Source: an uncultured Planctomycetales bacterium (GTDB taxonomy: Bacteria > Omnitrophota > Gorgyraeia > Zapsychrales > Fredricksoniimonadaceae). From it: DNA of 64,000 nucleotides. Made by a program: the position numbers and the translations under genes. Shown piece by piece: positions 9,965 through 47,600 of this stretch. Numbering within the stretch: the first letter of the stretch is position 1; each line of letters starts with the position of its first letter. The notes under the pieces were generated by a model. That model was not told the origin of the DNA, made no database searches, and worked only from the letters and a program-made list of their open reading frames with translations. The stretch covers positions 143,300-207,299 of the forward strand of contig CAZNDZ010000001.1 in assembly GCA_964572155.1 (NCBI GenBank). The letters run 5' to 3'.

Positions 9965-10740
9965 TAGTGAAATTTAACCTCATCCAACGGGAACGCTGGC
10001 CCGTCATAACATACTGTCTTAAATCCTTTGGTTGTTTCAATCGAACAACCCAAACATGCTCCTAACGCACAGGCCATGATTTCTTCGCAAGCGGCTTGCC
10101 CTTGCAATTGATGTTTGCCGGCAAATTCTTGAACGGCCTTCATCATGGGGTTTGGACCACAGGTATAGAGAAATGTGTTTTTAGGATTAACGTCGATCTT
10201 ATCAAACAAACCGCTCACGCGTCCTTTAAAACCAACAGAACCATCGTCGCTGGCTATATGCACTCGAACACCTAGTTCCTTAAAATCTGTTAAAGGATAA
10301 ACATGCGCGCGTGTCCGCCCACCGTAAATTAAGGTAAGGTCATATTTTAATTCTTTAAGTGCGTCCGACAAAATAAGCATGGGAGCAACCCCGATACCTC
10401 CGGCAATCATCACGACCTTTTTAATACCTGCAGGTGGTAAAACAAACGGCGTGCCTAAAGGACCTAAAACATCCAAGGTGTCGCCTTTTTTCTTTAATGA
10501 CAAGATCTTGGTGCCTGGACCTTTGACATCATAAAAGATGGAGACATATTTTTGTGCCCGATACACGCTAAATGGTCGACGGAAGAATGGTTCAAAGCCT
10601 GTTTCATTGGTGCGGATGTGCACAAATTGACCGGCCTTTACTTCTTGGGCAAGTTGCGGCGCATTAAATGTTAAGCGCCAATATTGCGGACACAATTTTT
10701 CGTTGCTGACAACCGTATAAATGTTTTGTATTTTTTCCAT
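9964..10740 (-). CDS. pyrK: dihydroorotate dehydrogenase electron-transfer subunit
   Basis: 258 aa; FAD/NAD-binding fold RPFSV..GGIGVAPM; C-terminal 2Fe-2S cysteine cluster CACALGACLGC. Confidence 0.85.
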   Translation of the reverse strand: MEKIQNIYTVVSNEKLCPQYWRLTFNAPQLAQEVKAGQFVHIRTNETGFEPFFRRPFSVYRAQKYVSIFYDVKGPGTKILSLKKKGDTLDVLGPLGTPFVLPPAGIKKVVMIAGGIGVAPMLILSDALKELKYDLTLIYGGRTRAHVYPLTDFKELGVRVHIASDDGSVGFKGRVSGLFDKIDVNPKNTFLYTCGPNPMMKAVQEFAGKHQLQGQAACEEIMACALGACLGCSIETTKGFKTVCYDGPAFPLDEVKFH

Positions 10741-10760: not shown

Positions 10761-11564
10761 TTACCTTTGGCATTTCTTGCAATAAAATGTACTTCTTCCT
10801 GCCTGCACAATACGGACAATGGGTGTTTTACAGACGGTGCAAGGCTCATTGTCCCTCGCATAAACCTGTATGGCCTTATTGAAATTTCCTTTTTGCCCAG
10901 CCCCGTCACGGTAATTACGCATGGAAGAACCGCGCAAATCAATGGCATGTTGCAAAACATCCCGTGTCTTCTTTAAGAGCAGTGGTATTTCTGTTTTTCG
11001 AATCTGTTGTGCAGCCCTAGTTGGATTGATCTTGCTTTGAAACAAGATTTCACTGGCGTAAATATTACCAATACCAGCGACGAAGACATGATCCAGTAGG
11101 ACGCTTTTAATTGGGCGCGATGTCTTTTTTAAACATGCGCCTATGTAATTTTCATTAAACCCTTGTTCAAATGGCTCGGGTCCCAACAGACTAAAGTGTT
11201 TGATCTCTTTGAGATCCTTAACCACACGCAGCTGCCCAAAGACACGTTGATCGTTATATAAAAGTTTGGTTTTATCGAGGCTGAAATGAATGTGGCTATG
11301 TTTATCGGCTTGGCCGTTTACAACCAGCTGGCCTGTCATCATGACTTGCACAACAAGGAATTCACCACCGCTTAAGACAAAAACCAACGCTTTTCCTCGT
11401 CGACGAATCGCTTCAATAGTCTGACCTTTTAAACGATTAACAAAATCTTTTGTGGGTTGACGCAAGACACGATCATCTTTCACATCAATTGAAATAATGC
11501 GTTGGCCTTGGATGGTTTTTTCTAAATCACGTCGAATGGTCTCTACTTCAGGTAGTTCAGGCAT
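10761..11564 (-). CDS. mutM: formamidopyrimidine-DNA glycosylase
   Basis: the canonical N-terminus MPELPEVETIRRDL must follow the initiator Met (catalytic Pro2), so the start is at 11564, not the ORF-track 11591; C-terminal zinc finger CTVCKTPI..FYCKKCQ. Confidence 0.9.
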   Translation of the reverse strand: MPELPEVETIRRDLEKTIQGQRIISIDVKDDRVLRQPTKDFVNRLKGQTIEAIRRRGKALVFVLSGGEFLVVQVMMTGQLVVNGQADKHSHIHFSLDKTKLLYNDQRVFGQLRVVKDLKEIKHFSLLGPEPFEQGFNENYIGACLKKTSRPIKSVLLDHVFVAGIGNIYASEILFQSKINPTRAAQQIRKTEIPLLLKKTRDVLQHAIDLRGSSMRNYRDGAGQKGNFNKAIQVYARDNEPCTVCKTPIVRIVQAGRSTFYCKKCQR

Positions 11565-12137: not shown

Positions 12138-13415
12138 TTATGCCTTATAGACAACTTTCCCGCCGCAAATCGTGGCACATACGTGACCTTTTAATGTCCA
12201 TCCGATAAAAGGAGAGTTTTTTGACTTTGAAACAAAGCCTTCTTTGGTGACGACCCACTCTTTATCTTCGTCGATGATGGCAATATCGGCATCCATCCCC
12301 TCTTTGATCGTGCCTTTGTTGGTTAACCCAACAATGCGGGCTGGTGCGGTCGACATTTTCTCAACTAATTTTGGTAAATCAATGTGTCCTGGTTTTACTA
12401 GTTCTTTGATCGTTAAACCTAGTGAGGTTTCTAAACCAATCAACCCAAACGGCGCTCCGTCGAAACCAACTTCTTTGTCTTCATTGGTATGCGGCGCATG
12501 GTCGGTGACGATGCAATCGATCGTGCCATCGACAATCCCTGCAATGATGGCATCCACGTCAGATTGCGCACGTAGCGGCGGATTAACTTTTGTCGATGTA
12601 TCAAAACCTGCACAGGCCTCGTCGGTTAATGCAAAATGATGTGGGCACGCTTCAGCGGTTACTTTAATCCCTTGGGCCTTAGCCTGACGGATGAGTTCAA
12701 TCGAACGCTTGAGCGACATATGACACAAGTGCACCCGTGCATCTAAATAATTGGCAATCTCAATGTCGCGCGCAACCGTGACCGTTTCTGCAATTCCTGG
12801 GTCGCCTTTTAAACCAATGCGCGTGGAAACTTCACCTTCATTCATGACACCTCCAGCGGTAAGCAAAGGATCTTGGCAATGTTCGATGATCAAAAGATCT
12901 AACATCTTGGCATATTCCATGGCCAGACGAAATAAGCGGCTATTGAGGACCGATTTGCCATCATCAGAAAGCGCCAAACATCCTGCCGCCTTAAGCTCTG
13001 ACATATCGGTTAACTCGCCGTCATTTTGACCCTTGGTGATGGCGCCAATAGGATAAACATTGCATAAACCAACTCGCCGGGCTTCGCGAATAATGAATTC
13101 AACAACCATCGCATTATCGGTCACAGGTGTTGTATTTGGCATGCAAAAAATTGACGTAAACCCACCTTTGACAGCCGCTTTCGATCCTGTTTCAATGGTT
13201 TCTTTATCCTCACGCCCAGGTTGGCGCAAGTGCACATGGATATCAATGAGGCCCGGTAAAACTTTTCTATCTTTAGCATCGACAATCTCATGCTTGTCAT
13301 TGGCAATCGCAGGGGCAATTTTTACAATCTTGCCGTCTTCGCATAAAATATCTTGGGGCTTATCCCAAATCTTATCGCTGTTAACAATCGTTGCATTCTT
13401 AATCAGTAATCCCAT
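12138..13415 (-). CDS. pyrC: dihydroorotase
   Basis: metal-binding DIHVHLRQPG and downstream His/Asp blocks; preferred start is ATG at 13415 (MGLLIKNATIV), giving a TAAtATG junction with pyrB; the ORF-track start at 13436 is a TTG. Confidence 0.9.
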   Translation of the reverse strand: MGLLIKNATIVNSDKIWDKPQDILCEDGKIVKIAPAIANDKHEIVDAKDRKVLPGLIDIHVHLRQPGREDKETIETGSKAAVKGGFTSIFCMPNTTPVTDNAMVVEFIIREARRVGLCNVYPIGAITKGQNDGELTDMSELKAAGCLALSDDGKSVLNSRLFRLAMEYAKMLDLLIIEHCQDPLLTAGGVMNEGEVSTRIGLKGDPGIAETVTVARDIEIANYLDARVHLCHMSLKRSIELIRQAKAQGIKVTAEACPHHFALTDEACAGFDTSTKVNPPLRAQSDVDAIIAGIVDGTIDCIVTDHAPHTNEDKEVGFDGAPFGLIGLETSLGLTIKELVKPGHIDLPKLVEKMSTAPARIVGLTNKGTIKEGMDADIAIIDEDKEWVVTKEGFVSKSKNSPFIGWTLKGHVCATICGGKVVYKA

Positions 13416-14978: not shown

Positions 14979-15006
14979 TTGCCTTATTGTGATTATGTTT
15001 TATACT
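14979..15006 (+). promoter_or_regulatory. sigma70-like promoter TTGCCT-16nt-TATACT placed for a leaderless transcript
   Basis: the -10 hexamer ends 6 nt before the ATG at 15013 and no SD precedes it, consistent with leaderless initiation. Confidence 0.3.
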
Positions 15007-15012
15007 TTAACT

Positions 15013-16254
15013 ATGAGACCACGTATCCTAATAGGACTACTTGCAGCAACCACCATTCCTCTCATTGCCTACGCCGGCACCTTAACCATGACTACCTATT
15101 ACCCAGCACCAACCGGTAATTACGACGTCCTAAACGCCAGCTCAATCGGCATCGGCACGGTCACAACCCGAGACAGACTAACTGTCGCTGGCTCTGGAAC
15201 TGGATATGCAGTAATCGGAGGATTAACCGGTTGTGGTTCAAATGTTACTGGTATTCAATTGAATGGCTCAGCGCTTACCTGTAATGACCATAATATGTCT
15301 ATGAATGGCAATAACCTAAGAATAAATAGGCCCAGTACTGGCACCATTATATTTAGACATGATAACAGCACTCAAATGACGCTCGATGCTACTGGAAACC
15401 TCGGTATTGGCATAACACCAACTAGTTTATTGCATGTAAACGGCGCTTCCAACCTTGTTGGTGCTGTAACCATGGGAAGCACTGCCAGTATTGCTGGAGC
15501 TGCAACCATCACAGGAGCTACCACACTTAATGGGGTTACAACGCTCAACAATAGCACAACTGCCAATAGTAATTTTACTGTTGCAGCTGGTGGTTTATCC
15601 GTTAATGCAGGTGTTGCAACCACCTTAAGCGGACCAGCCACCGCAGCAAATGGATTAACCGTTAGCGCAGGTGGTCTTGCAGTTACAGGTGCTACATCAA
15701 TAACTGGCAATACAACCATCACAGGCAATGCAAGCGTGTCTGGCACAACCACCCATACAGGTGCAACAACCTTAACAGGCGGCATTAACGGTGGCGCTAC
15801 TGTTAATACTGGAAATCTTACAGTAACTGTAGGTAATCTTGCTGTTAACGCTGGCAACCTCACGGTTGGCGGCACATCAACATTTACAGGCGCTTCTACA
15901 ATAAATAACAGTCTAACGGTAACTGGCAATGTGTCTGCCAATGGATTTTTCTATTCTTCTGACAAGCGCTTAAAAACACAGGTACAACCCATTTTCGACC
16001 CAATAGAAAAAGTAAAACAGCTCAAAGGTGTCACGTTCCGTTGGAAAAAAGATCGCAAGAAGTCTGTCGGTATCATTGCCCAAGATGTTGAAAAAGTATT
16101 TCCCGAACTTGTCCATACTGACAAACAAGGCATGAAATCTGTCGCATACCCTAACCTCATTGGCCTCTTGATTGAGACCACCAAAGAACAACAAAAACAA
16201 ATCGATGCGCTCAAAAAAGAAGTTGCCCAATTGCGCAAAGAGATAAAAAGGTGA
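15013..16254 (+). CDS. secreted phage tail-fibre-like protein with C-terminal intramolecular-chaperone (peptidase S74) domain
   Basis: signal peptide MRPRILIGLLAATTIPLIAYA|G; long G/T/N/A-rich beta-helix-type repeats (TGATTLTGGINGGATVNTGNLTV...); C-terminal SDKRLK autocleavage motif followed by VGIIAQDVEKVFPELV and a coiled coil. Confidence 0.75.
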   Translation: MRPRILIGLLAATTIPLIAYAGTLTMTTYYPAPTGNYDVLNASSIGIGTVTTRDRLTVAGSGTGYAVIGGLTGCGSNVTGIQLNGSALTCNDHNMSMNGNNLRINRPSTGTIIFRHDNSTQMTLDATGNLGIGITPTSLLHVNGASNLVGAVTMGSTASIAGAATITGATTLNGVTTLNNSTTANSNFTVAAGGLSVNAGVATTLSGPATAANGLTVSAGGLAVTGATSITGNTTITGNASVSGTTTHTGATTLTGGINGGATVNTGNLTVTVGNLAVNAGNLTVGGTSTFTGASTINNSLTVTGNVSANGFFYSSDKRLKTQVQPIFDPIEKVKQLKGVTFRWKKDRKKSVGIIAQDVEKVFPELVHTDKQGMKSVAYPNLIGLLIETTKEQQKQIDALKKEVAQLRKEIKR

Positions 16255-16398: not shown

Positions 16399-17058
16399 AT
16401 GCCACGTCGCGCCCGCATTGTTCTACCCGGTTACTTTCATCACGTAACTCAACGAGGAAACTATCAGCAAAATGTATTCTTAAGCAATCAAGATCGAGCA
16501 GTATATTTAAAATACATTGATGAAAATGCTCAAAAATATGGTCTGAACATTTATGCTTTTTGCTTAATGGACAATCACGTACACTTTATTGTGACCCCTA
16601 TAAGCAAAGATTCACTTTCAAATACTTTTCGTGTCGCTCATCAACGATATGCTTTGTATGTAAATAAAAGAGGTCGACAATTGGGGCACCTATGGCAATC
16701 TCGTTTCTACTCCTGCATCTTATTAGGAGAACACATTGCCCGCGCTATTCGTTACGTAGAACGTAACCCAGTACGAGCAGGATTGGTAAATAAACCGGAA
16801 GATTTCTTATGGTCTAGCGCTCGATCACATTTTGGGAAAAGATATAGAATAATATCCTTAACTGATATCCCAAAATATATTACTGTTGAATCTTGGAAGA
16901 AATACCTTACAAGTGAAGATGCGCCTGAAGATTTGCAAGAAATACGAGCTAATACACTTCAAGGAAAAGCTTTTGGAAATGTAAACTCCATTGAAATTCT
17001 AGAGAAACAAATTGATAGAAATTTAGTGTTTTGCCCTCAAGGAAGACCTAAAAGATAA
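16399..17058 (+). CDS. REP-associated tyrosine transposase (RAYT, IS200/IS605-like Y1 HUH transposase)
   Basis: 219 aa; MPRRARIVLPGYFHHVTQRGN, HUH motif NHVHFIV, catalytic-Tyr block RYVERNPVRAGLV. Confidence 0.8.
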   Translation: MPRRARIVLPGYFHHVTQRGNYQQNVFLSNQDRAVYLKYIDENAQKYGLNIYAFCLMDNHVHFIVTPISKDSLSNTFRVAHQRYALYVNKRGRQLGHLWQSRFYSCILLGEHIARAIRYVERNPVRAGLVNKPEDFLWSSARSHFGKRYRIISLTDIPKYITVESWKKYLTSEDAPEDLQEIRANTLQGKAFGNVNSIEILEKQIDRNLVFCPQGRPKR

Positions 17059-23675: not shown

Positions 23676-26600
23676 CTATGCTCGCGCTTTTCTCTTTTTC
23701 TTTAACTTGCTCATGCGTTGTGCCGCTCTGCCCCTTGTCACAACACCAAGCAATGGGTGGTAGGATTCTTTATAAAGCTTTATAAATACCTCTTGGACGA
23801 TTTTTGGGATCGGCAAACTGACGATAAAATCTAATCGTCGGTTAATCTTCTCTAGCCAATCTTTTGCGGAGCGATCCATACGTGGCGTTAAATTTGAGAC
23901 GGAATCTGCCACCTTAATCACACCCAATGCAGCTAATAATAATCTGAGCGTCTCTTTGTCTTGAACTTGTCGAACGCGTTTGCGCATGGCATGTATAAAA
24001 TCCGCATCGGTTTCGCCGTTGCGTTTGGTGACGACATCAATCATGAATACAATTTCTTTAGCCGATGCAGCCTCTACTTGACTTAATAATCCTTCTAGAT
24101 TTGCTTTTGATTGTTCTAAGGTTTCACCAAAAGCAACTTCTTTAATCCTTGCTTCAACCCAATCATGCAATAATGCCGTGGACAAAGCCACATCCAAACG
24201 CACATGCAAATCATTTAAATATCGAAGTAATGGTCGATTATTAAGGACGATTTCCATAACACCCAACAAATGGAAAATATAAGGATGTCCGTCAGAGCGC
24301 TTCTCATCTTTATGCTGTTCATACGCAATGTCGAAAGCTTTAAGAATTAATGGCATATTGATATCTTGATCATACGCATAAGCCCTTGCCAATAAACGAT
24401 CAAACCATTCTCTAAAATACACAGCCACATACGCATCATATTGACGTTCATACGCATAAATAGGGATGTTGCTTAATCCCATGAAAGTTAAATCCACATG
24501 ATCCGAATACCTTTGTGTGAACTCAGGAATCTCATTGAACCATTTTTGGGCGGTTGTAATCAACATGCCTTTAGGATGAATCCATTGCACCAAGCGGTTG
24601 GCCACCAGAACGGTTGCCATGGGCTTGTTGGGATCTTGTTGGGCTTCCACCTTAAATTCCACCGCTTGCATCATAATCAGATCAAACTTTGTGCCATTAA
24701 TAGGGGCGTAATCTTCAATGCGCTCTTCTTGGAATTCAAAATATGCTTTGTACTTTTCTTGCAACTCAACGTGGTTAATGTCCGCGAATGCAAAGAAATG
24801 GTCGATGATCTTCTGTGTCTCTGTTGGAATAAAACGTTTTGCCGCATTGGTCTTGAAATATTCCAAATTGTACCTGCCACGCTTTGCAATGTTTAAGTCT
24901 TCTGGATTCGGATCAAATACTGTGATCTTAAAATTTTCTGGTGTTAACAGTTGGCCGCCCCATAATTCTGGATGAGCACGATTATCTTCTATGATATAAA
25001 CCAAAGCACGTACGGCATTAACAGCAGAAGGTTGTGTTAATTGACGCAGGTAAATGTCTAAAATATCAAGCCGCCCGCGTTGATTAAATAATTGTCTTAA
25101 ATTTGGGATGGATTTCTTAATCAATGTTACAGCACCGCTGTTGGATTTAAATAACTCGATCTTGTAACGAATGACCATGTTCTTAAAATAAGAAACATGT
25201 TGGTTGGCTTGTGCGCGAATTTGTGGGTATGTTCTTCCACCTTGTTCATTGTAGTAAATGGCAAATATTTCGTAGACGAGTGTTTGCTCTAGAACCATGC
25301 GATTTTTTAACGCTGCCGGAAATAAGATAACAACATAAATATGTTTATGCTTTGCAGCAAATCTGGTGTTCATGGCATAAAGCGTATTGCCATCTCCGAC
25401 GCGACGAGTCCACTCATCTTGCATTTTCTTATCAGCTTGCACAATCACCAATTCATTGCCTTCATTCTGGCCTTCTAGCATTTGAACCAAAACTTCTGGC
25501 GCTTTCATTTCATGAAAGAATTCTTCTATTTTTCCTCGAACATCTACATAATTTCGATCTGTCTTTAACAGACGTAATTCATGTTTAACTAAATTTAAAA
25601 TCTTTCCTCTATTAAAAAAAAGAAAATCATGCGCCTCTTTTAAACCTGCTTCATCTAACGGCAACAATGTCCGTGCAGGGTCAACGGACTTATTTTTTCT
25701 AATGTCTCGGCCAAGTGATATGAAATATGCATGAATCACACCACCAATTGCAGCGAGTGCCCAGCCATTTGATTTTGTAACAACAAAGATCGTTGTGCCT
25801 GGGAACAGAAAAGAACCTGGAAAAAATATTTTGTAGATGATGGTGCTTATCGCTAAAAATCCTGCGGCAACAACGAGTCTAGCTAAAGTTACATTGTATG
25901 CCCTTGGCCCTAGTCTATTTTGAATGATGTCAAAGGCTTGCTTACGAATCCACGCAAAAACTAAATAACTTGCGACGCTGCTACCAAATAATACGATCGT
26001 GGCTCCAAAACTATAAAGCATATTGTCATAGATTGGCCCAGACCCGAGGCTCATTAAATTCGCGATGATAAACGTCCAAATAGCTGTCTCTTTAATTGAC
26101 CTAAAATCTAAAATTTCATAACGTTCACGAGCTGTTGGATTTGAATGATTCACAAATGATGTGGCAACCAAGTTGCCAATATCTTCATTAACCTGATGGG
26201 ATAAACCTAAGATCGCACCTGCTTCATGCGCAATTGAATTTAAGATGTCTTTTTTATCTTTGTTGCGTTGTGGCATGAGAACGATGACGTTATATTGAGC
26301 ATCTTTAAAGCTAACCGGCAAATGGAATGCGGATATTTTAGGAGCGGCTACGTTACGCAAACGGTTGAGCCAAACTTTAATGTCATGCTTTAATTGCGCC
26401 GGTGCATTGATAACAATGGTGTGTTTATTGCGCAATAAATCGATCATGCGACCGATATTATCATTGTAACTAGAGTAGTTCTTTTTTAATTGCTCTAGTT
26501 GAGCAATTGTCTCTAAGATTTCTTTTTCATATGTTTGCGTCCCAGGGGCATTGTTTAAAACTGCCTCTAGGGCAAGCTCGATGCTGGGTACATATTTCGC

Positions 26601-29600
26601 AATGATCTTCCTTAACGATTGACGCTGTTGCTTTGTCATTTCCCAGGAACTACGTGCAACATCCTTAGCGTTATCTTTTAGTAAGAAGACTTCTTTATCT
26701 TTAAGACCAAAGATATGACTGACAGACCCTACATATTCTTGAGGCGTATTAAACTCTTTACCGCTTAATACAACCAAAAAGAATGTGAAAAGCTGATGAT
26801 TTGTTTTGAAATTAAGTTTGGCGATCTCTGTTTCCAGGCCCGTTTTTCTATCGCTTTCACGACGTAGATATAGTAAATATGGGATCGACCTCTTTAATAC
26901 AGCCATGGCAAAAATAAATTTCGCTGAGTGGCGCAACTGAAGCCTTGGGGCAAGTTGAAAATATTCTGCGTAAAGCGTCACCATTAAGAATAACAAGTCA
27001 TCATTCTTATAACCTTCAAAATCGATGCGATATCCAACCGCTTCATAGACAATCCCGCCGATATCATTGCCAACAGGAATTCTAATTGGAACACCTTCTG
27101 GCCAAGCAATTTTAAAAACCTTTAAATACTGCGCCTTAATCCATTGTTGTTTTGCTGCAACTTTTTCTCTTAAAGTAGGCTCTGGTGAATATACAATCGG
27201 CTGCGTCTTGATTGGAACAAAAATGCTTTTTGATGACTTGATTGGATCAATGATCACAGGGTCTTGCATATAATGTAACCATGCATGCGCTATAAACACA
27301 ACCAACGCTTCAATCCCAAACACATACAATGGTATTTTTTGTTGAAAGATAATACCTAAAACAATAAAGAGCCAAACAACCACATTCACCATATTTTTCC
27401 ATGTTGCTTTTGAAATGACTTCCGATGAACCTTCGATGCCAATCACTCGATCTAAATTGGAAAGCTTCATTAAACGTCGCTGGGCTTTAATCGCTGCCTT
27501 TTCTGTTGGTTGCTGTTCATGAGCGATAACATGGGCAATGAAACGCAAGGCTTGAGCTTGTGTTAAACCAAGCCTGTTGGTTAAAATATAATAGATAACG
27601 TCTTGAGGCTCTTCGTTATTTCTAACCGTGATCATCCATTTCCACGTCGTAACATATTGACCGTTAATCTTAACTGTTTTGCTTTGGGCAATCACACCTT
27701 GGGGCAGCATCGCATGTTCTTCTAAAAACTCTTTTAATGCTCTTGTCCATTTCGCTAAATCTCTAAATTGTTTAGCGCGCAGAACATCACGCTCTTGTGA
27801 AGCCGCTTTATCTTGTTCAAGGTCTGACCAATTGTGATGACTATCTTGAGATGTATTGTCGTTATATAACCATGGGAACATGTAACGGCTAAATCTTTCC
27901 CATGAACCTAATGACTGCAAATACTTCTCTCTTGCAATCTGGTTGATATCTTGAATGCTGGAACGGATCAACATAGCCACTTCATCATCAAAATACCGAC
28001 CCAAAATCAATCTGCGATACGGCGTCATCCATATCTCATTTAATTTAAATTTAATGTCTTCCCTATATTCAAAAGCCCATACAATACCCGCAACATAAGA
28101 TTCACCTGTTCTTGTATTCACAACTTGAGCAATGAGATTCTTTTGCAAATCACTGTTAATCATATCCCACGCTTCAGTGGCATTTAATTCTTGTGAGCTT
28201 GCTCGTAACCATATGTCTGGATAAAGTGTTGGTATGGTAAACGCGTCAGCGAGCGTCATGCTGCGGACAACCAAAACCGAATCATTCTCAGAGATAAAAT
28301 TATGCACCCGAATATGGGGCGTATTCATGATGTAATGGCTGCCAGTCTGATCATCTCTTAGGTTAAAAATATCTTTAAGCGTGACATCGATGCTCACCAT
28401 TTTTTTCTTGTCTAACGCTAATTCATGAAACCATGCGACTTGTGCGGCCAAGGCTAAGGATTCTGTTGGCTGTGCTTCGTGGCGTTTGATGTTTTCTAGA
28501 ATTTCGTATGCTCTTTGTTGTGGGAATTGCTCTAACAATAAGGCTCTGACGGTTGCTTCACCGTTTTCAAAAACAGCATTCCATTGAATCTTACCCGCTT
28601 CATGTTTCGCAAAATCAAAATGACGTAATTCACTGGCTGTTCCACGAACTCGTCCTAGACGGAGCAATTGGATGATGAAATCTTTCAAATCTTTTTCAAG
28701 CGTTGAAAAGCCTTCATAAGCAACTGTATCATTGCGGTACTTCATCTTTGCTTCGGCCATCCCTGCAATCGAAATCGCGTGACCTGCTTTCTTGGGTAAA
28801 CGAACAATGATTTGATAATAATCATCTTTTTTATTTCTGTAATCATCGACCCTAACCATAAAGCGTGGTGATTGTGTGATTAAGACAATGCGCTGCAATT
28901 TTCCTAATTCAAATGTGCGGGACAACCATCGCCCAAGCCAATATAAACGCCCATTGATGAGTTGCAATTTTCTGACCGTCAATAATGCATCCAAACGTTG
29001 CTCTCGGGTTTGAAAGTCTAATATATAAACTCGTTTTGTGTTAGGTAATGGATAAATCATCGACACGCCGCGACGTTCATCACCCCGTGAACTAAAGAAA
29101 TATCCATCATTAAACTTAGCCGCACCAAAAACTTCATGAAAACCAATTGCGGATTCAGGGCTATGGGTCATTAAAAATTCCACATTAGAATCTTGCATGG
29201 CCAACGCTTTGATATTGGTGATCAACAGCTTAGATAGATCTTTAGGGAAGTGGCTTCCATAATATGCCTTGCGATCTTTTGACACGCCTTTTAGATATGG
29301 GATACCGGTGCTGTGTGGGACAATGGCATTGCCATTAGGATCAAAGTTGTTTCGTACTTTCTGAATCGATTCCCAAATGGTTCCCTTCACATCACTTGAT
29401 TCAATTTTTGCTAACAGCAAATCATCCAACATAACTTTTGTCGTCCAGATAACAGAGCCCAAATAAGCACCTGAACCATTTTGTGCAACTTCAGCAACTA
29501 ACTGACCTTCAGGGTTCTTTAAAATCATGCCCCAAGCTTGATGGGCATCAAAGATATCTGACGGTGTTGTCATCCAAATGTCCTGTTGTAATGCAGCAAC

Positions 29601-32600
29601 AGGCAATGCGTCACTTAATGTCATGTGACGGATGATAACAACTTCGAAAACACCATCTTTGGTGCGATTGTAAATGCGCACATAAGGCTTATCGCTTTCA
29701 TATGCCTTGGGATCATCACCTTCTTGCAATTCATAAATGGAACGTTGAACGACTTCAATCGTTGCTTGACGACGACGATCTTGAGCTAATCGCTTAACTA
29801 GCAACTTTTGCGCTAAAATAGCGCGTTCTTCCGTCGACTCTGCTTCATGCACCCTAATGTGTTCTAAGATCTCGAATGCTCGATTGGCTGGGAAAACTTC
29901 GAGGAGCAACTTTAAAACCGTAGCTTCACCATTTTCAAATGCCGGATTCCAAACAATATTACCAAAATCATGGCGGGCAATTTCAAAAACACGTAATTCT
30001 TGCGGTGATCCTCGAATACGGCCGGTATCTTGGAGATATTGCAAGAACACCGTCAAATCCTTTACAAGATCAACAAATCCTGCCTTTTGCATGCCTTCAA
30101 TGGTCATGGGATGATCTTGATGTCGTTTGATGTATTTGATACCATCCGCGTCGACATTTTTAGCCGATATGAATTCAAAGATGGCTGCAAGCCCATGTAA
30201 ACCTGCCATTGCAAAAAGCGTATACTTTACAAAAACGGATATCACCCCAGCGGCTAGCAGCGATAGAATCGGCGCCGCACTTAATATAGAGTCAACCATG
30301 ATATACGGCGTGATCAAGGCTGCGACTGTAACAGGTTCAACATATAACCCTGCCGCAGCCAATAATAAGGCCGCAACAGCACTGGCAAAAAATCCAAACA
30401 AGAACGTTACGCCACTCACACCGTCGATACGACCTTCGTGAAAATTTACTCTGACTTTCTGTCCAAACATCAATGCCCCAAGCAAATGCCCAAACTCATG
30501 CCATGCGATGACGCCGGTATATTTCAATAAGTTTCTGACGCTCGACGATAAACCAAATGGCAATTGGTCGGTCCAAAGCAAAAGACCAAGATAGGCAGTT
30601 CCTGCAAAAACCTTGGTTCTTATAAAACCATTTAGATCCAACTGTTCGAGCCCATTGCCTTCGAATACTTTTGGATGCAAATATATTTGATGTGCTTGAG
30701 TTTTTCCAATCACGCTGCTGGCCGTAACCCATGTGATCAGAAATTTATTACTGGGATTGATCCAAGCAATTTTGAGGGGATCGATGGCTTTATTTGTTAA
30801 GAACTTTAATGTTTCTGGACTTAAAGCCTTCATGAAACGTTGACGTTCGACGTCATTTAATTCTCTTGGTAAATCGGTGCCAAAGTATTGCTCAACTTGA
30901 ACACCTAAGTTTTTTCCGTTCTCTAGAAGTGAGCGAATGAAATCAACTTGGCGTTTGATGTGTTTCACTGGATCAACCTGATAAAACTCTCCCACCACAG
31001 TGACTAAGCGTTGGGCAATTTGAATAGCATTCAAGTAACCTAAATCATCAAGTTGTTGATTCACAAAGATGAAGATAAATTCATCACCGCGATCCTTAAC
31101 ACCCTGCCATTGCGCCTTCATCGCTAAACCAACAGACTTAAATTCACCGTCCATTTTTCCGGCACTGGCCAACACATTTTTTAAACGCGCTGCCACATCA
31201 GGACGGCCTTGCGTTAAGCGATCTATCGATGCTTTAGATAGCGCCGTTAAATCAATTAATATGACACGATTATTGCGCAGCATGTCGGCCAACAAGTTCC
31301 CCATGGATAAACGTGGTTCTTTCGCTTCTCTAATATTAATGGTTTGATCCGGATGAGTTTGTAAGAAGTCGACCGCGAGTGTCGCAGCAAAATGATTCGG
31401 CTTTAATGTATGGTCTACATGGTTAGAAAACACAACACTATAGAGTTGCTTGAAGATATTGCGATAAACACCACTGTAACCATAACGCATTTGTGCTTGA
31501 TCGCTATCATATTGCAAGCCAACGTATGTATCGACAGATCTGTTTTGTTGATCTTTTTCAAAATCTCTAAACACAGCATCTAACTCATACTCAGCTTGCC
31601 TTTGTTCTTCTTCTAGCATCAAGGTTAAAATGGTGTTGCGGGCATATTCATCATCGGAAACAGCGCCTAAAATATCTAAGCCATCATATAAATGTTGTAA
31701 TTCAACAAAGTTTTCTGGTTTGCCTGTGAAATGATTTAAGGTAACATCAATGGCTTGTTGCTCATTTTCTCCTAACGCTTCATGTCCTAATATTTCATGT
31801 CGCAAAACATCTTTAAGCACCGCCAAAAATTTCGTGCTGCTGCGTTCATTCGTATTAAACGGCGGCAACATGGACATGGGGATCACATTAAGCAAAACGC
31901 GTCGGGTTTTAAAATCATACTGAGCTAAAATTTCTTTTGGAACAGCATTGGTAATTACAATGTTGTTCATGCGGCTAACAGGTAATGACAACCCTTCAAG
32001 TGCGGCTCGCACATAGGCTTGCTGACGGGCCAATAATTCATCGCCAGATGTAAATTTATCGGTGTCCAAACGGTGATGCCAAAAATCAAAACGTGATGGG
32101 TAATCAGATTTAATTTCAACAGGTGGCGTTCCAATGACGTCGACGATTTGGCCAGATGAAACTGGTTTTGGTGAACGGGTTGTATAGACTTTGGTCTGAC
32201 TGGTTGAATTCCAAGGATTGTAACGCCAGAAGGTGATCAAACGATCCAAGCCCTCTGGTTCAACCAAGGCCACTTCACTAAATGTTAAGACAAACATCTT
32301 TTGCACGGCCACCATATTGATTAACCCGTCATACATGATGCCGTATAATTTACGCACGTCACTAGATGCATCTCTAAAATCAACATCGCCTAAATGAATG
32401 TGATGATCCGTGACGTTGGAATTCTTACTATGGTCCGTCGCTTCTTCATTCGCTACTCTTAAGCCAGTGGTAAATACTTCAGCGCCGCCAGTAAATAAAT
32501 CACGGTAGCTCCACCCTGTTAATATCCCTTTGGTTTGCTTGGCAGTGGTTGCCACGTTGGCGGCGCGTTGAGGATCAATGGGTAAGAAGAAAAATGCCTT

Positions 32601-35600
32601 TGTACCACGTCTGACGCCACTTAAGAATCTAGCACCAAAATGGTCTTCGGCATTACCACCATGTTCAGCCACTTCTTGGGATGCGTGTGCAGTAGCATGC
32701 AATTTGCGTACTAAGATTTCTAAGAGTTGATGATAGGCTGATTCAGCACCGATCGCAAAGGTTGGCATTCCCAAACGATCCCACAGTGGATGATTCTTAA
32801 AGTAACGCATGACAATCGTAAAGCCATATAAGTTAAACAAGAACAACAATGTTTCAATGGTAACCGCAACAATGTTTAAATTCATGCCAAAAATAACGCC
32901 CGTGATAAACAGTTTGTTCCAAATCAACGCAGGGATAGAGAAGTTTAAAATTAAATATGAAACATTAAAAACCTTCCCCCACATAACTTCTTTAATACGC
33001 CACGCTAAATAATGTGCTTTCTCATTTATTGTTGCACTAACTGTTGATTCAATCGTTAATCCTTTATGATCAACTCCTAGAACTTGTTCGATTTTTTTGA
33101 GCGCATCATTGCGCAGGCGCATCAAATGTCTAAAGCCTTCTTTATTGATTTCCATCATGAAGCGGTACTGACGGCTATATTTTTGACGCATGCCGCGATG
33201 CAAGAACACGGCTAATTCGTTAACCAACCAAATCAATGCTGTTGTATCGACCGTTGATGCTTCAGAAATGCGGATATTCGCATCGGTGATAAACAAACGG
33301 CGACTAAATGGGGCCCCATCGCTAAAGCGTTGACCAATGCCCTTGGCCATGATGGTGTCAGGGCGATTATTTAAAACAAAAACACGCCCTGGAAACATGC
33401 TTTGCAACTTACCAACACCCGCTAAGGTTGGGAATGTTTGCCCTGAATCACTGATCGCAAAAAATATCGTTCTACGGGTCGCACCGTATTCGCGAGGATC
33501 ATCAACGAGCTTGTTCGACGAAATCGCTGAGATATTTAAATATGGGAAAATGACCTCTAATATTTCCTTAAGTTTTTCGCCCACCCATTGTGATTTTTCA
33601 AAACCTGTGATGATCAAATGTCGTTTCTCAAAATCAGCGATCTTATTCTTATGTATCTTTTCATGGAAATGACCATTGATCGCATCAACAAAGGCATTCA
33701 TGGCATTTTTGCTATCGTGTTCCCAATCCCAATCATTACGTACTTTGTTAAATGAGCTATTTAAGTAAGCTAAAATATTACGGCTAAGCACAAGCACCCA
33801 TGCGCTCAACTCTTTATCAAATTCTTTGGAAAGAGCATTTAAATCGATTGCTTGATCTAATTGTCCTGTTTGTGATAACTCATCGATTTTGTCCGAAACA
33901 AACTTTTCAGCCATCCCATAGAAGTAATCCTCTAATAAGGATTTTCCTTCAACAGCGTCCATCATGTCGGTGACAAACTTTTCGCGTGCTGACTCATCAA
34001 CCAACCCTACCTGATTACGCGCGAAGCGTTCGATCAACGTTAAAAATTTAGGTCTAAGTGTTGAAAAGCCCGTTGTGCGGCTTTTGATTTCATTTTCAAT
34101 AAATAGCGCTTCTAACATGGCCAACAGGTCTTGGGCGCTTTGATGGTTTAATGATGCTGGATTACTGAAACTATTGGTGATGCCAAGCAAAACACGGGCT
34201 GTATCTTCCATGTCAAACTTCACATAATTCTTAACACCAGCATAATCAACGAGCGGACGGTAGAACTGATTGTTTTCATTGAGCGACATCAAATTGTTAA
34301 AGAATTCATTCCCTGAAATCTCACGGCCTATATTCATGTTATAAACACTGACTTGGAAACGTCCATCCGCATACATGTTAAGATCTGCCACTTCACCTTT
34401 TCCGGTAATGTCCATGTCATAACGCTTGGTCAAATATCCTTTAGAACCATATTTGACTTGTAAGACCAATGATTCAGAAGCAAAACCGAAGAACTTTTCT
34501 TTCGTGTTAAAACCAAATGAGATGGCTTGATCGCGTGTAAAGAATGAAAGGCCATTGTTGAGTGAAGTGCGCACCACAACACCGAAGCTGCCTTCAGCGC
34601 GTTGTGCAAAGGCACGTGTGGCACGGTAACGATCATTGATAAAGAATGCGCGCAACACCCCTTCGACAAACACATCTAATTGTTGTGCATCTAAATGCCA
34701 ATTTCTAACGATTGCCGCTGCATTTTGATCCGCCAATAAAGCCTTAGTGATATCTTGGCGTAATTGATTTAAGCGCTCGCGTTGCTTTAACTTGACTGCA
34801 TCATCCGTCTGGTCAACTTCAACCCAAAGATCAGACAATGTTCTTCGTGGCTTATTAGCATTGAATTTAGAAATAGCTGCGGCATGTTGTTTAAAGATGT
34901 TGTCAATAACGCCAGCGATCGTGTTGCGGTCTTTGATGGATAAAGCCGTATTATCTTTAGCGACGGCTTCCAATGGCTTTTTGCCATTAAAAATATCTTG
35001 AGGTGTTTTAATAACATTTAAAATCCATGAGTTAATGACCGCAGATGTAAACATGCCTTGATTAAAGAATAATCGCACTGCACCGGAGGCTGGTGGAGAA
35101 TCGCCTGGGGTTTCGTCGGCAAACGGATAATCAAAAGGCTTCTTTACTTGTTCAACATGAAAGACATTCTTTAATAATTGGCGCAATTCATCATTATCGA
35201 TCTTACGCCCTAAAATATCAAAATAATCAAAATCCCCGTTATGAGTGATGGCCACAATCACCGTCTCAGTAGTCTTAACCAAGGCGCCTTGCGCATCAAA
35301 CGACCATACTTCAACATTTAATTCAACAAAGTCAACGTGAGGATGCGAAGCATTTGGCTTTGCTTTACCCGCCGTTGCAAAACGCACGTGACCAGATAAC
35401 AAATTGACGCCCAAGACTCCCTTTGCACCTTGCTTAATCATATGAATTACTTTTTTGGCCCAAGCACGTTCCATGACATCAGCAAGCAGAGGTCGTTTGC
35501 CTTTCATGGCTTTTAACATCAACATGCCATACCCACCTGTCGCATCACGGAAAGATTGGATCATACCTGCTGTTTGACCACCGCGGATGGTGATCATGGT

Positions 35601-41600: not shown

Positions 41601-44600
41601 TTGCTTGATCAATGAATTGTTATCGGCGGTATAAATGGAACCTACAACAACTGGGTCGATGTTAAGTGCGGCCTTAAACAAATTCATCTTGATCGTTGGG
41701 TTTGGATTTTCCATGGCCTTAGCTAATAAATTCAACATGCTTGGGGCAATGCGTTCTTGTGCCAATGTTTCTGAGGCGGCTAATCTAGCATTCATGGATT
41801 TGGAGCCATCTAATAAGATCTCAAAGGCATTGATGACATCTTCGGAGGCTGGATTACGTATATCTTGCAAAGCTAAGGCAATATCTTTTTCACCCTTCGC
41901 CCATGCTGCACGGATGGCTGCATCTAATTGCGCGTTAACAAAAGCGGTCTTGGGTAAAATATTGCGCAACGTCTTAATGCGTCCCATGACTTCGCGATAT
42001 GTCGATACGTCGGTGATGCTCCCTAAATGTAAGTCTCTGGCATTATTCACAAGCGTAGGGATTGCTGATGAGATCATACCTGATCCAGCAGCGGCATTGG
42101 CTATGGCTTCTTCTGCAGCCCGGCGGATGATGACATTGGCATCACCGGCATATTTGCCAATCACGGCTTGTGCATTGGTGTCTAACATAGAATTTAGCAA
42201 ATCAATGAGCACAACCATCGTCTCAGGATTATCTTTGAAGCGATCCATGGCCCCTTGCACTGCAGGTAATAACTTATCGTTGATCCCTTGGTATAAACGT
42301 GGCTTTAAATTAATTTGTTTAGCGGCGATCGCATAGGTCTTGATGCTCTCTGGATCCATTTCATTCTTGAAGCGTTCAACCAAGACTTCAACAGGGATGA
42401 TCACATTATTTTTTGTTGCGAGCAACAAGGCGCCAAATTCGCGTTCATGATTTTGGTTGGTGCTTAAATTGATCAAACGTTGCAATTGATCGCCAGATGC
42501 TGCGGCATTGTCCTTGGCAAATTGTGCATACCCTGTTTCTAATGCTTTTAAACGTGCTTCTAAAATTGGAGCGGCTGCTTGTAACGTTACATCTTTGCCT
42601 GCAGGGATGATGTTGAGCTTCTTTTTGATCTCAGCGATCAATCGTTCCACGTTCTTTGGATCTTTGCTCATGACCTTCTCTAATAACAGTAAATATTGGC
42701 GTGCCAATTGATCTGGGCCCTTAGCCACAATAGCTTTTTCAACTTCATTTTCAATCCTGCTTAAAGAATAATTGGAGCGATTGATTAAATAGGCTAAGGC
42801 GTCGATGATATGTTCTCTATAACCATCCCATATGCCTTGTTGAATGCTATTTTCTGAAGACTTGATTGAAAGCATCAGATCAAATAATGGGTCGATGGCG
42901 GTTTCATTTTCTAAAGCCTTCGCGGCTGTTGCTGCTGTTAAATATAATAACCATTCATCGTCTTTAACATTGCCACGATTAGCCTGTAAAACCTTGGTGA
43001 TGAAATCATGCAAACGCTTATCGCTGCTTAAACCCGCACCAGCAATGGCTGCTAAACGCACGCGGTTATTTGGACTATTTAACCCAAGCTGCTCAACCAT
43101 ATCAAAACCACGGAAATTATTCTTAATACCATCTTGTGATTGAACCAACCGGGCCCAGGTTTCAATGCCTAAGATCTGATTGTGTTCTACTTCTCGCGGT
43201 AAATTCTCAGCGATGCGGTTGATAATGTCAGCAATGGTTGGATTCCCAAAGGCATTGCCATTTAAGAAATAACTTAAAACTTGATTACCCTTGTTCGATT
43301 TATCCGCGACTAAAACCTTGGATGCCAAAATCAAATGTTGATATGCACGTGCACGTAAAACTGCTGGGTCATCACGCAAACGCCAGAATTCATCATAACC
43401 ACGTTCTAGAACACCAAATATTGTTTCTGTAGACAAAACTTCGAATGACTTCGCCTTCGAAACCAAATCAACAATCCCAGACCCTGTTCCATACGAAACT
43501 GGCTTAGTTGCAACGGGGCCTACAAAATAGGTACTTTGATAAGCCACTTTAATGGTCTCTGGTGTTACAACGCCTCTATCATTAAGGCGTTTTAACGCAT
43601 CCGCTTTTTGTGTATTTGTGCTGTTAGTATTTATGAGCACTTGAACGTCACTATCTAGATTTTGCTTTGTTGCTTGGCGCGTTTGTTGTGTTACAAAAGA
43701 TGCGCCGCCGCGTTGTGCATACGTGTTGGTTGATACTAACGCTGTCATTGCTCCAACTAAGATGGCTGCAGCAATAAATGATGTGAAGTTACCTGCCCCG
43801 TCAGTAAAGTCTTTCACGATATCATGGGCTTGATCGTCACCAACAATGCTTCTTAATTCAACAAGTAAGTCGCGCTTGATTTGTTCGATGGCGTCATTGG
43901 CTTTATTAAAATCTACCTGTGCGCCTTGGACGGGTTGTTTGCTTACGTCTGACAAGATCAAATAGGCTTGGGCAATGATTAATGCACGTAATTGAACTGC
44001 ATACGGTGCATCAAACTGGGTTGGTGCAAAATATTGCCCTTCGAGGATGGTTGCTTTCAAGCCACGGCTTAAAACGAATAGGTCTTCAAAGGTAACATCT
44101 TGATTATTTAAAAAGTCATTGATCAGTTTTTCTGGTGAGCCAATGTGTTCTAAAATAAACGCATTTATTTCATCTCCACCTTGCAAGCCATTGACACTTG
44201 CAATCTCTTGTCCAAGCTTTTTAAGCAAAACTTCAAACGCAGCGGCATTAAATGACACATAATTTGGTAAAAGCGTTTTCTTGGCAACATCAATAAAACC
44301 GTCGGACAAGGCATTAACACGCGCAACCAAGGTGTTTGGCTTGCGACCAAAGTAAAAAGCACGAATGGCATCATAAATTTCTTGGAAGCGCAACGGTTCA
44401 ACAACTGGCTCATCAAATGCTTGATCGAACAGAGATTCAAAAGTCTCGACGACTGGTTCTGGCGCAACCGTTGGTTCGTCCATCAACTTACGAACATCTA
44501 ACAATTGTTCTAACGTTTCTAGCCATTCTGCTTCAACAGTAAATCCAAGCGTATTGTTTGAAATAAACTCAAGGTAGCCTTCCAAGACAGCCGTTGGTTC

Positions 44601-47600
44601 TCTTAAGAAGAATTCTTTTTCGGCATTACGTGCGTCTGCTTCGTTGCCGCCAAACACGTGTGTTAACTCATGCACTAAAACAATTCTCAAGAAGCTTTCA
44701 AACGTATCTAAAGCATCAAACACCTTCACATCAATGAACATTGCCTGATCGCGTACTTCGCCGACATAAGGATTGTTTGAAACAATACGTAAGTTATTCA
44801 AAATATTTTGTAAATCTTCGTTAGAAACATCCCTCACACTTTCAATAGCAGCTCTAACATATGCTCTGCCTGCATCTTCTAATGGATATTCTTCTTGGGC
44901 GCCTTCGATGCTGAAACGACCTGGGTATGGGTTGACTGACTTAATCGCTGCAATCTTGAGGCGTAACGCTGTGATCCTCCCTCGGATCTTCATGCGCTTT
45001 TCACTGCTTAATTCTTGTCGATTCATGACAGTTTCTACAAGAATAAGTGTTAACTTATTGCTAAGCGTTGATACAGCTTTTGTGTCTGATTTAGCATCAA
45101 GCAACTTCGTCTCAATACTATCTAACGCATGGGCTATCTTTTCTTCTAATGTTGCGCCTTCCTCTGGAGGCAATGTTGGTCCCCAACCCGTCGATATTTC
45201 CCAGTTCGGATTGGTGTCTTTAAACTCAACTTCTTCTTTATTGCCCCTATATTTTCTAACACCAAGAATTGTTATCAAGATGGCTAAGGCTGCAGCGATG
45301 ATTTCTAAATATAAAATTAATACAAAATGAATGTCATTTTCAAGTTTCTCACCCTTGATATGTGCGCTATCTACCAGAGCGCGCAATTCTAATTCTCGTT
45401 TCACTGATGGCTCAACGACTTGGACGGGCTGTGGTGTTTCTTCTTTTACTGCTGGGATGACAATTCTTTCTTTGACTGGTACGCGGACAATTTGATTGGG
45501 ATGAATGATATTTGGATCTTTGAAATCCCCTCGGATATCCGTATATTTAGCCACATTGAATCGAGCCGCAATCTTGCTTAATGAATCGCCTGGGCGGACC
45601 GTATAATCAATATAGGTGGTGCGTTCAAAGAAGCGTGTTTCTTGAGCATATGCGGGTGTTACAAAGAAGTTCGCCGCGATGGCAAAGACGCTAATCGCCA
45701 ATAATCCAACCATTGTCGTTAATGTTGCTTTGCCGGATTGTTTTGGATCATTGTTTAAAGCAGCTCTTTTCTTGGCTAATTCTGCTCTTAATTTATCTTT
45801 AAGGTAATCTTTATATTCTTGGCCTAGATCTGGATCTAAAGAAGCTGCTGCTTGTGCTTGTGCTATTTCTGCTTTCAATAATTCTGTATCTGCGGCAACG
45901 ACCCTGGCTTCATCATTAATTTTTTGGACAGTGACATCTGTATCATTACGGCTAGCAACAATTGCTTCTGCTCGCTCTGTCGCTTTTTCATCTGTTGCTT
46001 TTTCTTCAGCATCAAGATTTGCGCGTTGTTGTGTTTGCTTGCTTTGTGCTTTCATTCCTTCTAAAATGGCATGATTATTGTCTAATAACGCTTGCGCAAC
46101 TTGTCCTTCTTTTACTACTAATGCAACTTCTTCATCTGCTTGGTTTCGAATGGAGCCTAGCTTTACCTCAGTTTCATTCCTCGCAGCCACAATTGTTTCT
46201 GCTAACGCAGGTGCTTCTTGATGTGTTCTATCGACGATCGCTCGTGCGACTATTCCTGCCACTTGAACATCTCTTTCTTTTTCAATATCTGCAGGTTTTA
46301 CTAAAGAAAGTGTCAACATCAAAGGTTGGAATAAGTTAATTGGTTCTTGAGGGGCTGCTAAAAGTAGTGGGGCTCTTACTTTATTTGCTTGAGGAGCATC
46401 ATTTGTTGGCTGTGTTTCTGTCTTAGCTGCTGGCGCCACATCCAACATCATTTGTTTGCGTAATTGCTCAATCGCATCTTGTATACCTTGAATCATGTCC
46501 ATCGTTACGACTTGCGGTTGAACTGGAGCTTCAACGGGTTGTGACACCGCGACGGGTGGTGCGCGTGGAGCCACTTGTTCTGCGACAGGTGCCGCAACTA
46601 CAACAGGCGCAGGTTGTGCGACAGGTAAACGTACAGCAATTGGTTTACTAAATAATGTGTTTCTAAGTGAAATCCCTGTCGTTACAACAGTAGTTGGTAT
46701 CACAGGCGCTGTTGGTGCTTCTGCTTCAACAGATGCTTGAGGCACAGGTGCTACAGGTGCAGCTGGCTTTTTAGATTCTTCTGCTTGCACACTTGCTCTA
46801 ATCCTTGCGTCAATAGCTGCTAACCTCGCCGCTATCTCAGCGCTTCTATCTTGCTTCACTACAGGATGCACGACTGTTGCTGCAACTGCAGGAACAACGA
46901 CGATAGGCGCTACATCAACATTAGGTGCTTGAACTACAGGAACAACTGCACTCGACACAATAGGTGCTGATATAAATGGAATTGGTTTACTAAAGAATTG
47001 ATCTCTTCTCGTAAGCTTTGGCGCAACAACTGGTGCTGCTGGAGCTAAATCAACTGGAACAAACGCTTCTGTCAGATCAAAATCTAAATCAAGTTCACTT
47101 ACCTCAGGGCTAATGACGATGCCAGCAAGTTGCTCACGCGCATTTGTGCTTGCCATTAACATGAATGGTCCAACGCTTGCTAAGACATCAGTTACGATTG
47201 GTGCCGCTTCAACAGCATCAAATGCGTTTGGCAAATCTAAGTCTAAATCAAAATCAATATCTAAACTTTCAACTGTTGGTACTATTGGTTGACGATGCAA
47301 TGTAACATATAAGTAATTATTTTCTGACAACAACGCATCTAACTGTGTGCGTGTCGTTGCTGTTACTTGATCTAAATATACTTGTGGATCGATTGGTTCA
47401 GGTTCAAATGCGATTTGTGGTTCTGCTATTTCTAGGTCTATGACATTGCGAAGAGCTTTTACATCCATTGCTACGCTAATTTGCTCAATGATAGCAGCTG
47501 CAATTTTTCTTTGTTGGGCCACGGCAATCGCATAATCTTCATATGACGGAAGAGACAACATTTGTAACATTGCACGATTTTGTGCTCTAATTCTCAATGC

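Follow-up and report, generated by a model that had tools for sequence, protein, structure and literature searches.

A hydrophobic module with a HEFGH motif, deep inside a giant bacterial protein, may form a working metal site of the zincin type that resembles the active site of site-2 proteases (S2Ps) and is highly diverged from it. We give this reading, which is based on sequence comparison, a probability of roughly 0.45. The module is encoded within a giant open reading frame (ORF) on the minus strand of the window, by which we mean the whole 64,000-nucleotide stretch that was analysed (contig CAZNDZ010000001.1, positions 143,300 to 207,299); coordinates refer to the window, and residues are counted from the first residue of the ORF inside it. 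The original prediction had described the region as an M50-like, intramembrane metalloprotease site accompanied by a soluble zincin site, HELTH, in the same polypeptide, and both the peptide it quoted and its residue numbering could be reproduced. The parts of the protein on which the argument turns are:

23676-63926, minus strand: giant ORF, 13,416 residues uninterrupted within the window and open at the window end (64000).

30147-30659, minus strand: HEFGH hydrophobic module, residues 11090-11260, defined by translation, hydropathy and a sub-threshold PF13398 match of 17.3 bits.

30450-30539, minus strand: active-site-like helix VRNLLKYTGVIAWHEFGHLLGALMFGQKVR, residues 11130-11159, which carries most of the M50 and M50B similarity and is the sole part to do so.

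30486-30500, minus strand: HEFGH, residues 11143-11147, with H11143, E11144 and H11147 as putative zinc ligands and general base.

30405-30440, minus strand: polar loop HEGRIDGVSGVT, residues 11163-11174, with H11163, E11164 and D11168, the last a candidate third ligand (HEGRIDG).

30279-30308, minus strand: PYIMVDSILS in a hydrophobic helix, residues 11207-11216, with D11212 (30291-30293) as a candidate third ligand.

30144-30155, minus strand: VDAD at the C-terminal edge of the module, residues 11258-11261, with D11259 and D11261 as candidate, unproven ligands.

HEXXH motifs exceed chance in the giant protein, though the reading that first singled them out may have scanned for many motifs. 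Three are present, against 0.18 expected from 5000 shuffles of the protein (P(>=3)=6e-4), and two of them have three hydrophobic residues in front, for which 0.018 occurrences are expected (5000 shuffles). The two sites originally claimed, HEFGH and HELTH, do lie in one ORF; a third had been missed, and a look-alike of HEXXXH spacing had been placed correctly at residue 10710. The two further motifs are:

44658-44672, minus strand: HELTH, residues 6419-6423.

33651-33665, minus strand: HEKIH, the third true HEXXH, residue 10088, in a polar, His-rich context.

We rejected HEKIH as a zincin-like site, on account of this context and of the sole weak match to its segment, WipA_Phos (16.9 bits), an unrelated family.

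Profile searches, the check that had been recommended, returned M50/M50B and zincin as the only family-level signals, as predicted, with all scores below threshold. Against PF13398 (Peptidase_M50B) the HEFGH segment scored 14.9 bits as a piece of 300 residues, 17.3 bits at 176 residues and 18.0 bits at 79 residues, with expectation values (E) of 0.002-0.004 at 17.3-18.0 bits; against PF02163 (Peptidase_M50) it scored 12.9 bits over 23 residues (profile positions 8-30 of 221). The Pfam gathering scores are 26 bits for PF13398, 27.2 bits for PF02163 and 22.4 bits for PF06262 (Zincin_1). When HEFGH was changed to AAFGA, the M50B match was lost. Among 99 shuffles in which HEFGH was kept, a single one matched M50B at E<=1, and its match was weaker than that of the real segment (E=0.0041); the best metallopeptidase match of any kind had E=0.033. 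An unrelated small transmembrane (TM) protein with HESGH (locus L019) matched neither M50 nor M50B, and the best match among nine further segments of the giant protein was no better than E=0.06; these specificity checks mildly favour an M50-type reading. The proposed likeness to the active-site helix of E. coli RseP (NC_000913.3) is real: BLASTP aligned RseP residues 18-38 with the HEFGH helix at 9/21 identities, and the HEFGH pentapeptide is identical. Together, the excess of HEXXH motifs with a zincin-like lead-in, the fact that the Glu is retained, the HExGH pattern and the hits on families predicted beforehand make it probable that HEFGH is a real metal site.

If the S2P-like reading is correct, the module would begin with a weakly hydrophobic helix, continue with the HEFGH helix and, past a short polar loop, end in three or four helices that are strongly hydrophobic. 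Zinc would be coordinated by H11143 and H11147, E11144 would activate water, and an Asp from the later loop or helices (D11168, D11212 or D11259/D11261) would complete the metal site. Hydropathy shows a weakly hydrophobic helix (residues 11106-11124) ahead of the HEFGH helix and a strongly hydrophobic block of 89 residues (11167-11255) after it, in agreement with the further hydrophobic helices that had been predicted there. The placement of HEFGH within a TM cluster was right as to the hydrophobic context, but the helix itself is only moderately hydrophobic and lies at the cluster's N-terminal edge. Acidic residues are more frequent in the 89-residue block (4 D/E) than in the other large hydrophobic clusters of the protein (0-2). 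Candidate Asp residues for a third ligand do exist, including the one in IMVDSIL that had been proposed earlier, and none of the four is singled out. D11212 is preceded by a Pro at five residues' distance, as in PLPVLD of RseP, and the canonical motif's Asn and Gly are both missing; VDAD resembles the invariant SDADQL (D207, D209) of an M50B-like alignment described below, where HMMER did not align it; D11168 lies in the polar loop HEGRIDGVSGVT, which AlphaFold2 renders as a hairpin at low confidence. A module of this kind could bind metal and be catalytic, with a third ligand and a topology as sketched here, and with the giant polypeptide itself or further membrane substrates as possible targets of cleavage.

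The HEFGH helix could also be seen as non-catalytic, one of many membrane anchors in the protein, its likeness to M50 being short and either convergent or due to chance, with HELTH fortuitous in a helical soluble domain. We consider this quite possible, and a series of results weigh in its favour and against a diverged S2P-like site. The M50, M50B and Zincin_1 scores all lie under their curated cut-offs, and the matches are limited to 23-30 residues. Scans of long pieces of the protein report no protease family, so that significance arises only after segments have been chosen by their motifs. About 4% of the TM-like shuffles that keep HEFGH match unrelated Pfam families at E=0.003-0.01, which makes the significance of the M50B match shallow, and the equally strong match of HEKIH to the unrelated WipA_Phos marks the level of noise. 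The N-terminal 79 residues alone yield the full PF13398 score (profile positions 16-44), mutation of the loop H, D, S, G and T lowers it by 4.2 bits, the helices beyond the polar loop contribute nothing to it, and the region after HEFGH, scanned alone, matches no family; the similarity thus comes down to a pattern of about 30 residues in the active-site helix plus a small contribution from the loop. The second canonical S2P motif, NxxPxxxLDG, was not found in the module. Its hydrophobic helices after HEFGH are without any [LIVM]DG, the closest approach being PYIMVDS, which has a Pro at -5 but neither Asn nor Gly, and by BLASTP NLFPLPVLDGGH of RseP (the LDG region) is without a counterpart in the module. 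About a dozen other hydrophobic clusters along the protein bear no enzyme signature.

Structure prediction, which had been suggested for both regions, was run with AlphaFold2 on single sequences and returned confidences too low to judge the fold or to be of use. For residues 11060-11300 the predicted local distance difference test (pLDDT) score was 47, the least uncertain part being a helix, hairpin and helix around HEFGH; for the HELTH block, modelled as all-helical, it was 53. Foldseek searches of the PDB with these low-confidence models found nothing for the module and no match at E<=0.001 for HELTH, and PDB sequence searches with the HEFGH module and with the HELTH block found no match either.

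A comparison with actual M50B proteins adds to the doubt. These proteins were gathered from plasmids, using as bait a consensus sequence and then a real Tsukamurella protein as query; 120 were fetched and 30 aligned, which makes for a narrow alignment. Invariant among the 30 are HExxH, an A at +4, a G at +8, an HSDTSGLT loop, AGY..P, QIRN and SDADQL. The module has look-alikes for several of these, namely A at +4 and G at +8 after the second His, H..D..SG.T, G.Y..P at equal distance and VDAD at the end, but its loop spacing is different, QIRN is missing, and it is about 30 residues shorter. With hhalign, the module and the 30 proteins were paired at a probability of 2%. A hidden Markov model (HMM) built from the 30 gave the module -0.4 bits, or 4.8 bits without composition correction, scores equalled by 29% and 11%, respectively, of 3000 block-shuffled controls. 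Given that neither test backs them, we treat the look-alike positions as leads only.

Relatives of the module are almost wholly lacking. Residues 11040-11300 were searched exhaustively with phmmer in 1.84 billion representative sequences, which stand for about 15 billion proteins clustered at 50% identity; the search returned a single real relative, P0001, at 97% identity, and one spurious TM hit. P0001 is encoded on a 56-kb Logan contig (L001, from SRR30545106), a strain variant whose DNA is 91-99% identical to window positions 23561-51547. Between residue 11113 and about residue 11800 the DNA of the two strains is identical, so the pair is uninformative on constraint within the module. Pattern scans of GTDB genomes found no further relative, and the same holds for pattern scans of JGI metagenomes (with a 601-residue region and with an alignment of an internal repeat) and for tblastn against plasmids. 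A word-indexed search with the 261-residue module and a 55-residue core also found nothing; this is a weak negative, since the search missed P0001, a member of the collection to which the queries are 97-100% identical, and its negatives for the giant protein are therefore not to be trusted.

What speaks against mere chance is that two HEXXH motifs with a hydrophobic lead-in amount to about 100 times expectation. The sub-threshold matches hit both families that had been predicted beforehand, and 0/99 motif-keeping shuffles equalled them. His and Glu come at a cost in a membrane-associated helix if they serve no use. Taking both sides together, we hold a non-functional or non-proteolytic HEFGH to be nearly as likely as a working S2P-like site.

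Setting the module beside known systems makes clear how far a diverged S2P-like site would stand from them. The core fold of S2Ps comprises three conserved TM helices and a membrane-reentrant beta hairpin, and the Asp of NxxPxxxLDG is a zinc ligand. With the S2P/M50 family (PF02163; E. coli RseP, B. subtilis SpoIVFB) the module shares an HExGH in a membrane-associated helix, a short polar loop and more TM helices after it. In contrast to that family, it is without NxxPxxxLDG and without a PDZ or CBS insert, its score is 12.9 bits against a cut-off of 27.2, and it lies deep inside a protein of >13,000 residues, whereas S2Ps are stand-alone proteins of 200-450 residues. The M50B-like PF13398 (proteins of about 240 residues from actinobacteria, named 'M50 family metallopeptidase') provides the best profile match, at 17-18 bits, along with the look-alike positions; a score under 26 bits, the loop spacing, the missing QIRN and the length set the module apart. 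We know of no PF13398 member that has been characterised biochemically, and a full-text literature search for the family returned two incidental mentions and no more. Membership in M50, M50B or Zincin_1 is not established by these profile and motif comparisons, because for each family a defining feature was looked for and not found.

The second site of the original prediction lies in a soluble block that follows a LysM domain:

44472-44909, minus strand: soluble block with HELTH, residues 6340-6485 (the strain comparison spans residues 6300-6489).

45477-45605, minus strand: LysM domain, residues 6108-6150 (Pfam 24.3 bits; PDB SafA LysM, E=0.008).

HELTH could be a second site, independent of the first, soluble and zincin-like in a minimal form, of the type HExxHxxGxx(E/D). 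Its context, LRIVLVHELTHVFGGNEAD, has this type of signature behind a hydrophobic strand or helix and fits the C-terminal HExxHxxGxx(D/E) signature of Zincin_1 (PF06262), the profile of which matched sub-threshold at 13.8-15.5 bits (E=0.018 at best). None of 99 shuffles that kept HELTH matched Zincin_1, and the real sequence had the best E-value of the 100, narrowly (0.018 vs 0.03). Unlike a true member, however, the HELTH block aligns over 25 residues only (profile positions 67-91 of 97), the upstream part of the Zincin_1 domain does not match, and the score stays under 22.4 bits. DUF4157/eCIS_core was tried as another family for HELTH and rejected, as the real sequence gives no match. Between the two strains, residues 6366-6485 are unchanged and three replacements fall in residues 6340-6365; by codon counts, residues 6358-6457 show 1 replacement vs 5 synonymous differences, and residues 6158-6357 upstream 47 vs 27. 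We take this as mild evidence that the HELTH block is constrained between strains. The upstream residues 6158-6357 (45000-45500, minus strand) form a second divergent block, between LysM and the HELTH domain, and in-frame insertions or deletions distinguish the strains around residues 6490-6505 and around residues 4808-4824.

The LysM domain near this block, noted at the outset, is real by both Pfam and the PDB, and hydrophobic helices flank it at residues 6071-6089 and 6202-6220. HELTH follows about 270 residues onward, past one more predicted TM helix, the second of these two. If LysM faces the periplasm or the wall, HELTH would come to lie on the cytoplasmic side, given the one predicted TM helix between them.

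A further possibility, which we think unlikely, is that the HEFGH module binds metal and is not a protease: its zinc would then serve structure or regulation, or the module would belong to a path for ions or metal, and the main functions of the protein would reside elsewhere, in wall binding by LysM and in a hydrolase of the HD type at the C-terminus. Several polar or acidic residues within the hydrophobic block would suit such a role. Profile scans detected no PDZ or CBS domain, that is, no substrate-handling part, near the module, and the similarity to M50 ends with the metal-binding helix. On the other hand, both sites keep the Glu of HExxH, which is the catalytic base of zincins, HExGH and its flanking residues are like those of M50 enzymes and unlike known transporters, and no transporter family was matched.

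We think it very improbable that the giant ORF arose through faulty assembly or annotation, or that it is a gene in decay, and that its motifs are for that reason meaningless: although its counterpart in L001 is frameshifted and hardly any known domains were detected in it, a 40-kb stop-free frame in two independent assemblies, strong purifying selection over long stretches, a bona fide LysM domain and extreme avoidance of cysteine all argue to the contrary.

No in-frame stop interrupts the ORF upstream as far as the window end. In L001 the upstream piece of the gene runs about 5,400 residues past the first residue of the window ORF, to the contig start, and the full protein should therefore comprise at least about 18,800 residues. 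The L001 gene is split by a frameshift near window residue 7495 (L001 positions ~10001-10022) into products of 12,870 and 5,926 residues; the gene may truly be disrupted there, or the split may stem from faulty sequencing or assembly. Along long stretches of the ORF, synonymous differences between the window and L001 far outnumber replacements: at residues 9699-10198, windows of 200 codons hold 0-1 replacements vs 4-19 synonymous codon differences. To judge from this excess of synonymous differences, the ORF is a genuine gene, translated and subject to purifying selection. Cysteine occurs twice in its 13,416 residues (residues 7842 and 9413), where about 190 would be expected, and makes up 104 of the 7,307 residues (1.42%) in the window's 22 other ORFs; avoidance this extreme makes sense only for a translated protein. 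A hypervariable block lies at ~25500-27000 on the minus strand (residues ~12300-12800), in which replacements reach up to 130 vs 29 synonymous differences per 200 codons and the flanks of which are nearly identical; for this TM-flanked segment the pattern suggests diversifying selection or replacement of a cassette.

Hydropathy along the protein reveals about a dozen hydrophobic clusters, and the giant protein is therefore to be regarded as a polytopic membrane protein. A Pro/Val-rich low-complexity stretch, IPFISAPIVSSAVVPVVQAPNVDVAPIVVVPAVAATVVHPVV (46860-46985, minus strand; residues ~5649-5690), scores as hydrophobic as well and is unlikely to be a TM helix. Beyond this, the protein is, as far as domain searches can tell, almost entirely orphan: Pfam recognised LysM, weak HEAT repeats and a weak C-terminal RelA/SpoT-type HD domain and nothing else, PDB sequence searches with the whole protein found LysM and the weak RelA/SpoT HD and no other domain, and an NCBIfam scan gave nothing of further use. 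Its remaining features are:

23889-24338, minus strand: weak RelA/SpoT-type HD domain with an H...HD pattern, residues 13197-13346 (HD_4 14.1 bits; spoT_relA E=0.001; PDB GTP pyrophosphokinase E=0.03).

29427-30143, minus strand: copy 1 of an internal repeat of about 230 residues, residues 11262-11500, beginning directly after the HEFGH module.

28059-28811, minus strand: copy 2 of this repeat (self-BLAST with copy 1: 37% identity, E=2e-49).

The HD domain suggests that the C-terminus is a cytoplasmic end with a nucleotide hydrolase, as far as these weak matches indicate. The internal repeat is a soluble domain with the conserved core FENGEATV..LLLE.FP..RA.EILE, and it has no Pfam match and no relative in JGI metagenomes. 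A shorter repeat, in which residues 4702-4804 pair with residues 5290-5388, was also found by self-BLAST.

The genes downstream of the giant gene encode a DNA alkylation repair enzyme, a BamE-like protein, a TrmB-like methyltransferase, a D-Ala-D-Ala carboxypeptidase, DsbA, GlmS and a pyr operon, a set that is ordinary for a Gram-negative chromosome. The best matches of the window's GlmS among 185,579 species genomes are GlmS proteins from metagenome-assembled genomes of Candidatus Omnitrophota (57-64% identity), and on this evidence the giant gene sits on an Omnitrophota chromosome. In 80 glmS neighbourhoods, about 15 of them from Omnitrophota, tblastn found no match to the whole giant protein, and there is therefore no synteny with them. 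A Peptidase_S74 ORF adjoins an IS200-like Y1 transposase (14989-16254 and 16399-17058, plus strand), the two being flanked by the pyr operon and a tetrapyrrole methylase; endosialidase and tail-fibre proteins carry the Peptidase_S74 domain as an intramolecular chaperone.

Giant proteins have been described from Omnitrophota before, and for these it has been proposed that peptidase domains cut the precursor into pieces (West-Roberts et al. 2023, bioRxiv 10.1101/2023.11.21.568195). Besides C39 and S8 peptidase domains, SecA_DEAD domains were reported in that study, whose structure predictions left TM regions aside (West-Roberts et al. 2023, bioRxiv 10.1101/2023.11.21.568195); metalloproteases, M50 and zincins are unmentioned both there and in a 2026 Omnitrophota survey. 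The present protein resembles these 'Archaeovorin'-type giants in its Omnitrophota host, its length of >10,000 residues and its many TM regions. SecA_DEAD, C39 and S8 were not detected in the 13,416 residues within the window, at least about 5,400 N-terminal residues lying beyond it. A self-processing role for the protein, speculative as it is, would be in line with the proposals based on C39 and S8. It is a bolder idea still, and to our minds an improbable one, that the HEFGH module founds a new family of membrane zinc proteases and, together with a cytoplasmic HELTH site, cuts the precursor of at least 18,800 residues in cis, in or at the membrane, into functional pieces.

The module bears on the way in which proteins tens of thousands of residues long are produced, inserted and matured in bacteria. 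Should HEFGH and HELTH be inactive, the case would illustrate how far motif-level likeness can reach without family membership. If they are active, E11144 and E6420 would offer concrete residues to mutate in the study of giant-protein self-processing, and intramembrane metalloproteases would extend to a new architecture. Were cutting in cis to hold true as well, giant Omnitrophota proteins might have a route of maturation distinct from the C39 and S8 domains proposed for them so far.

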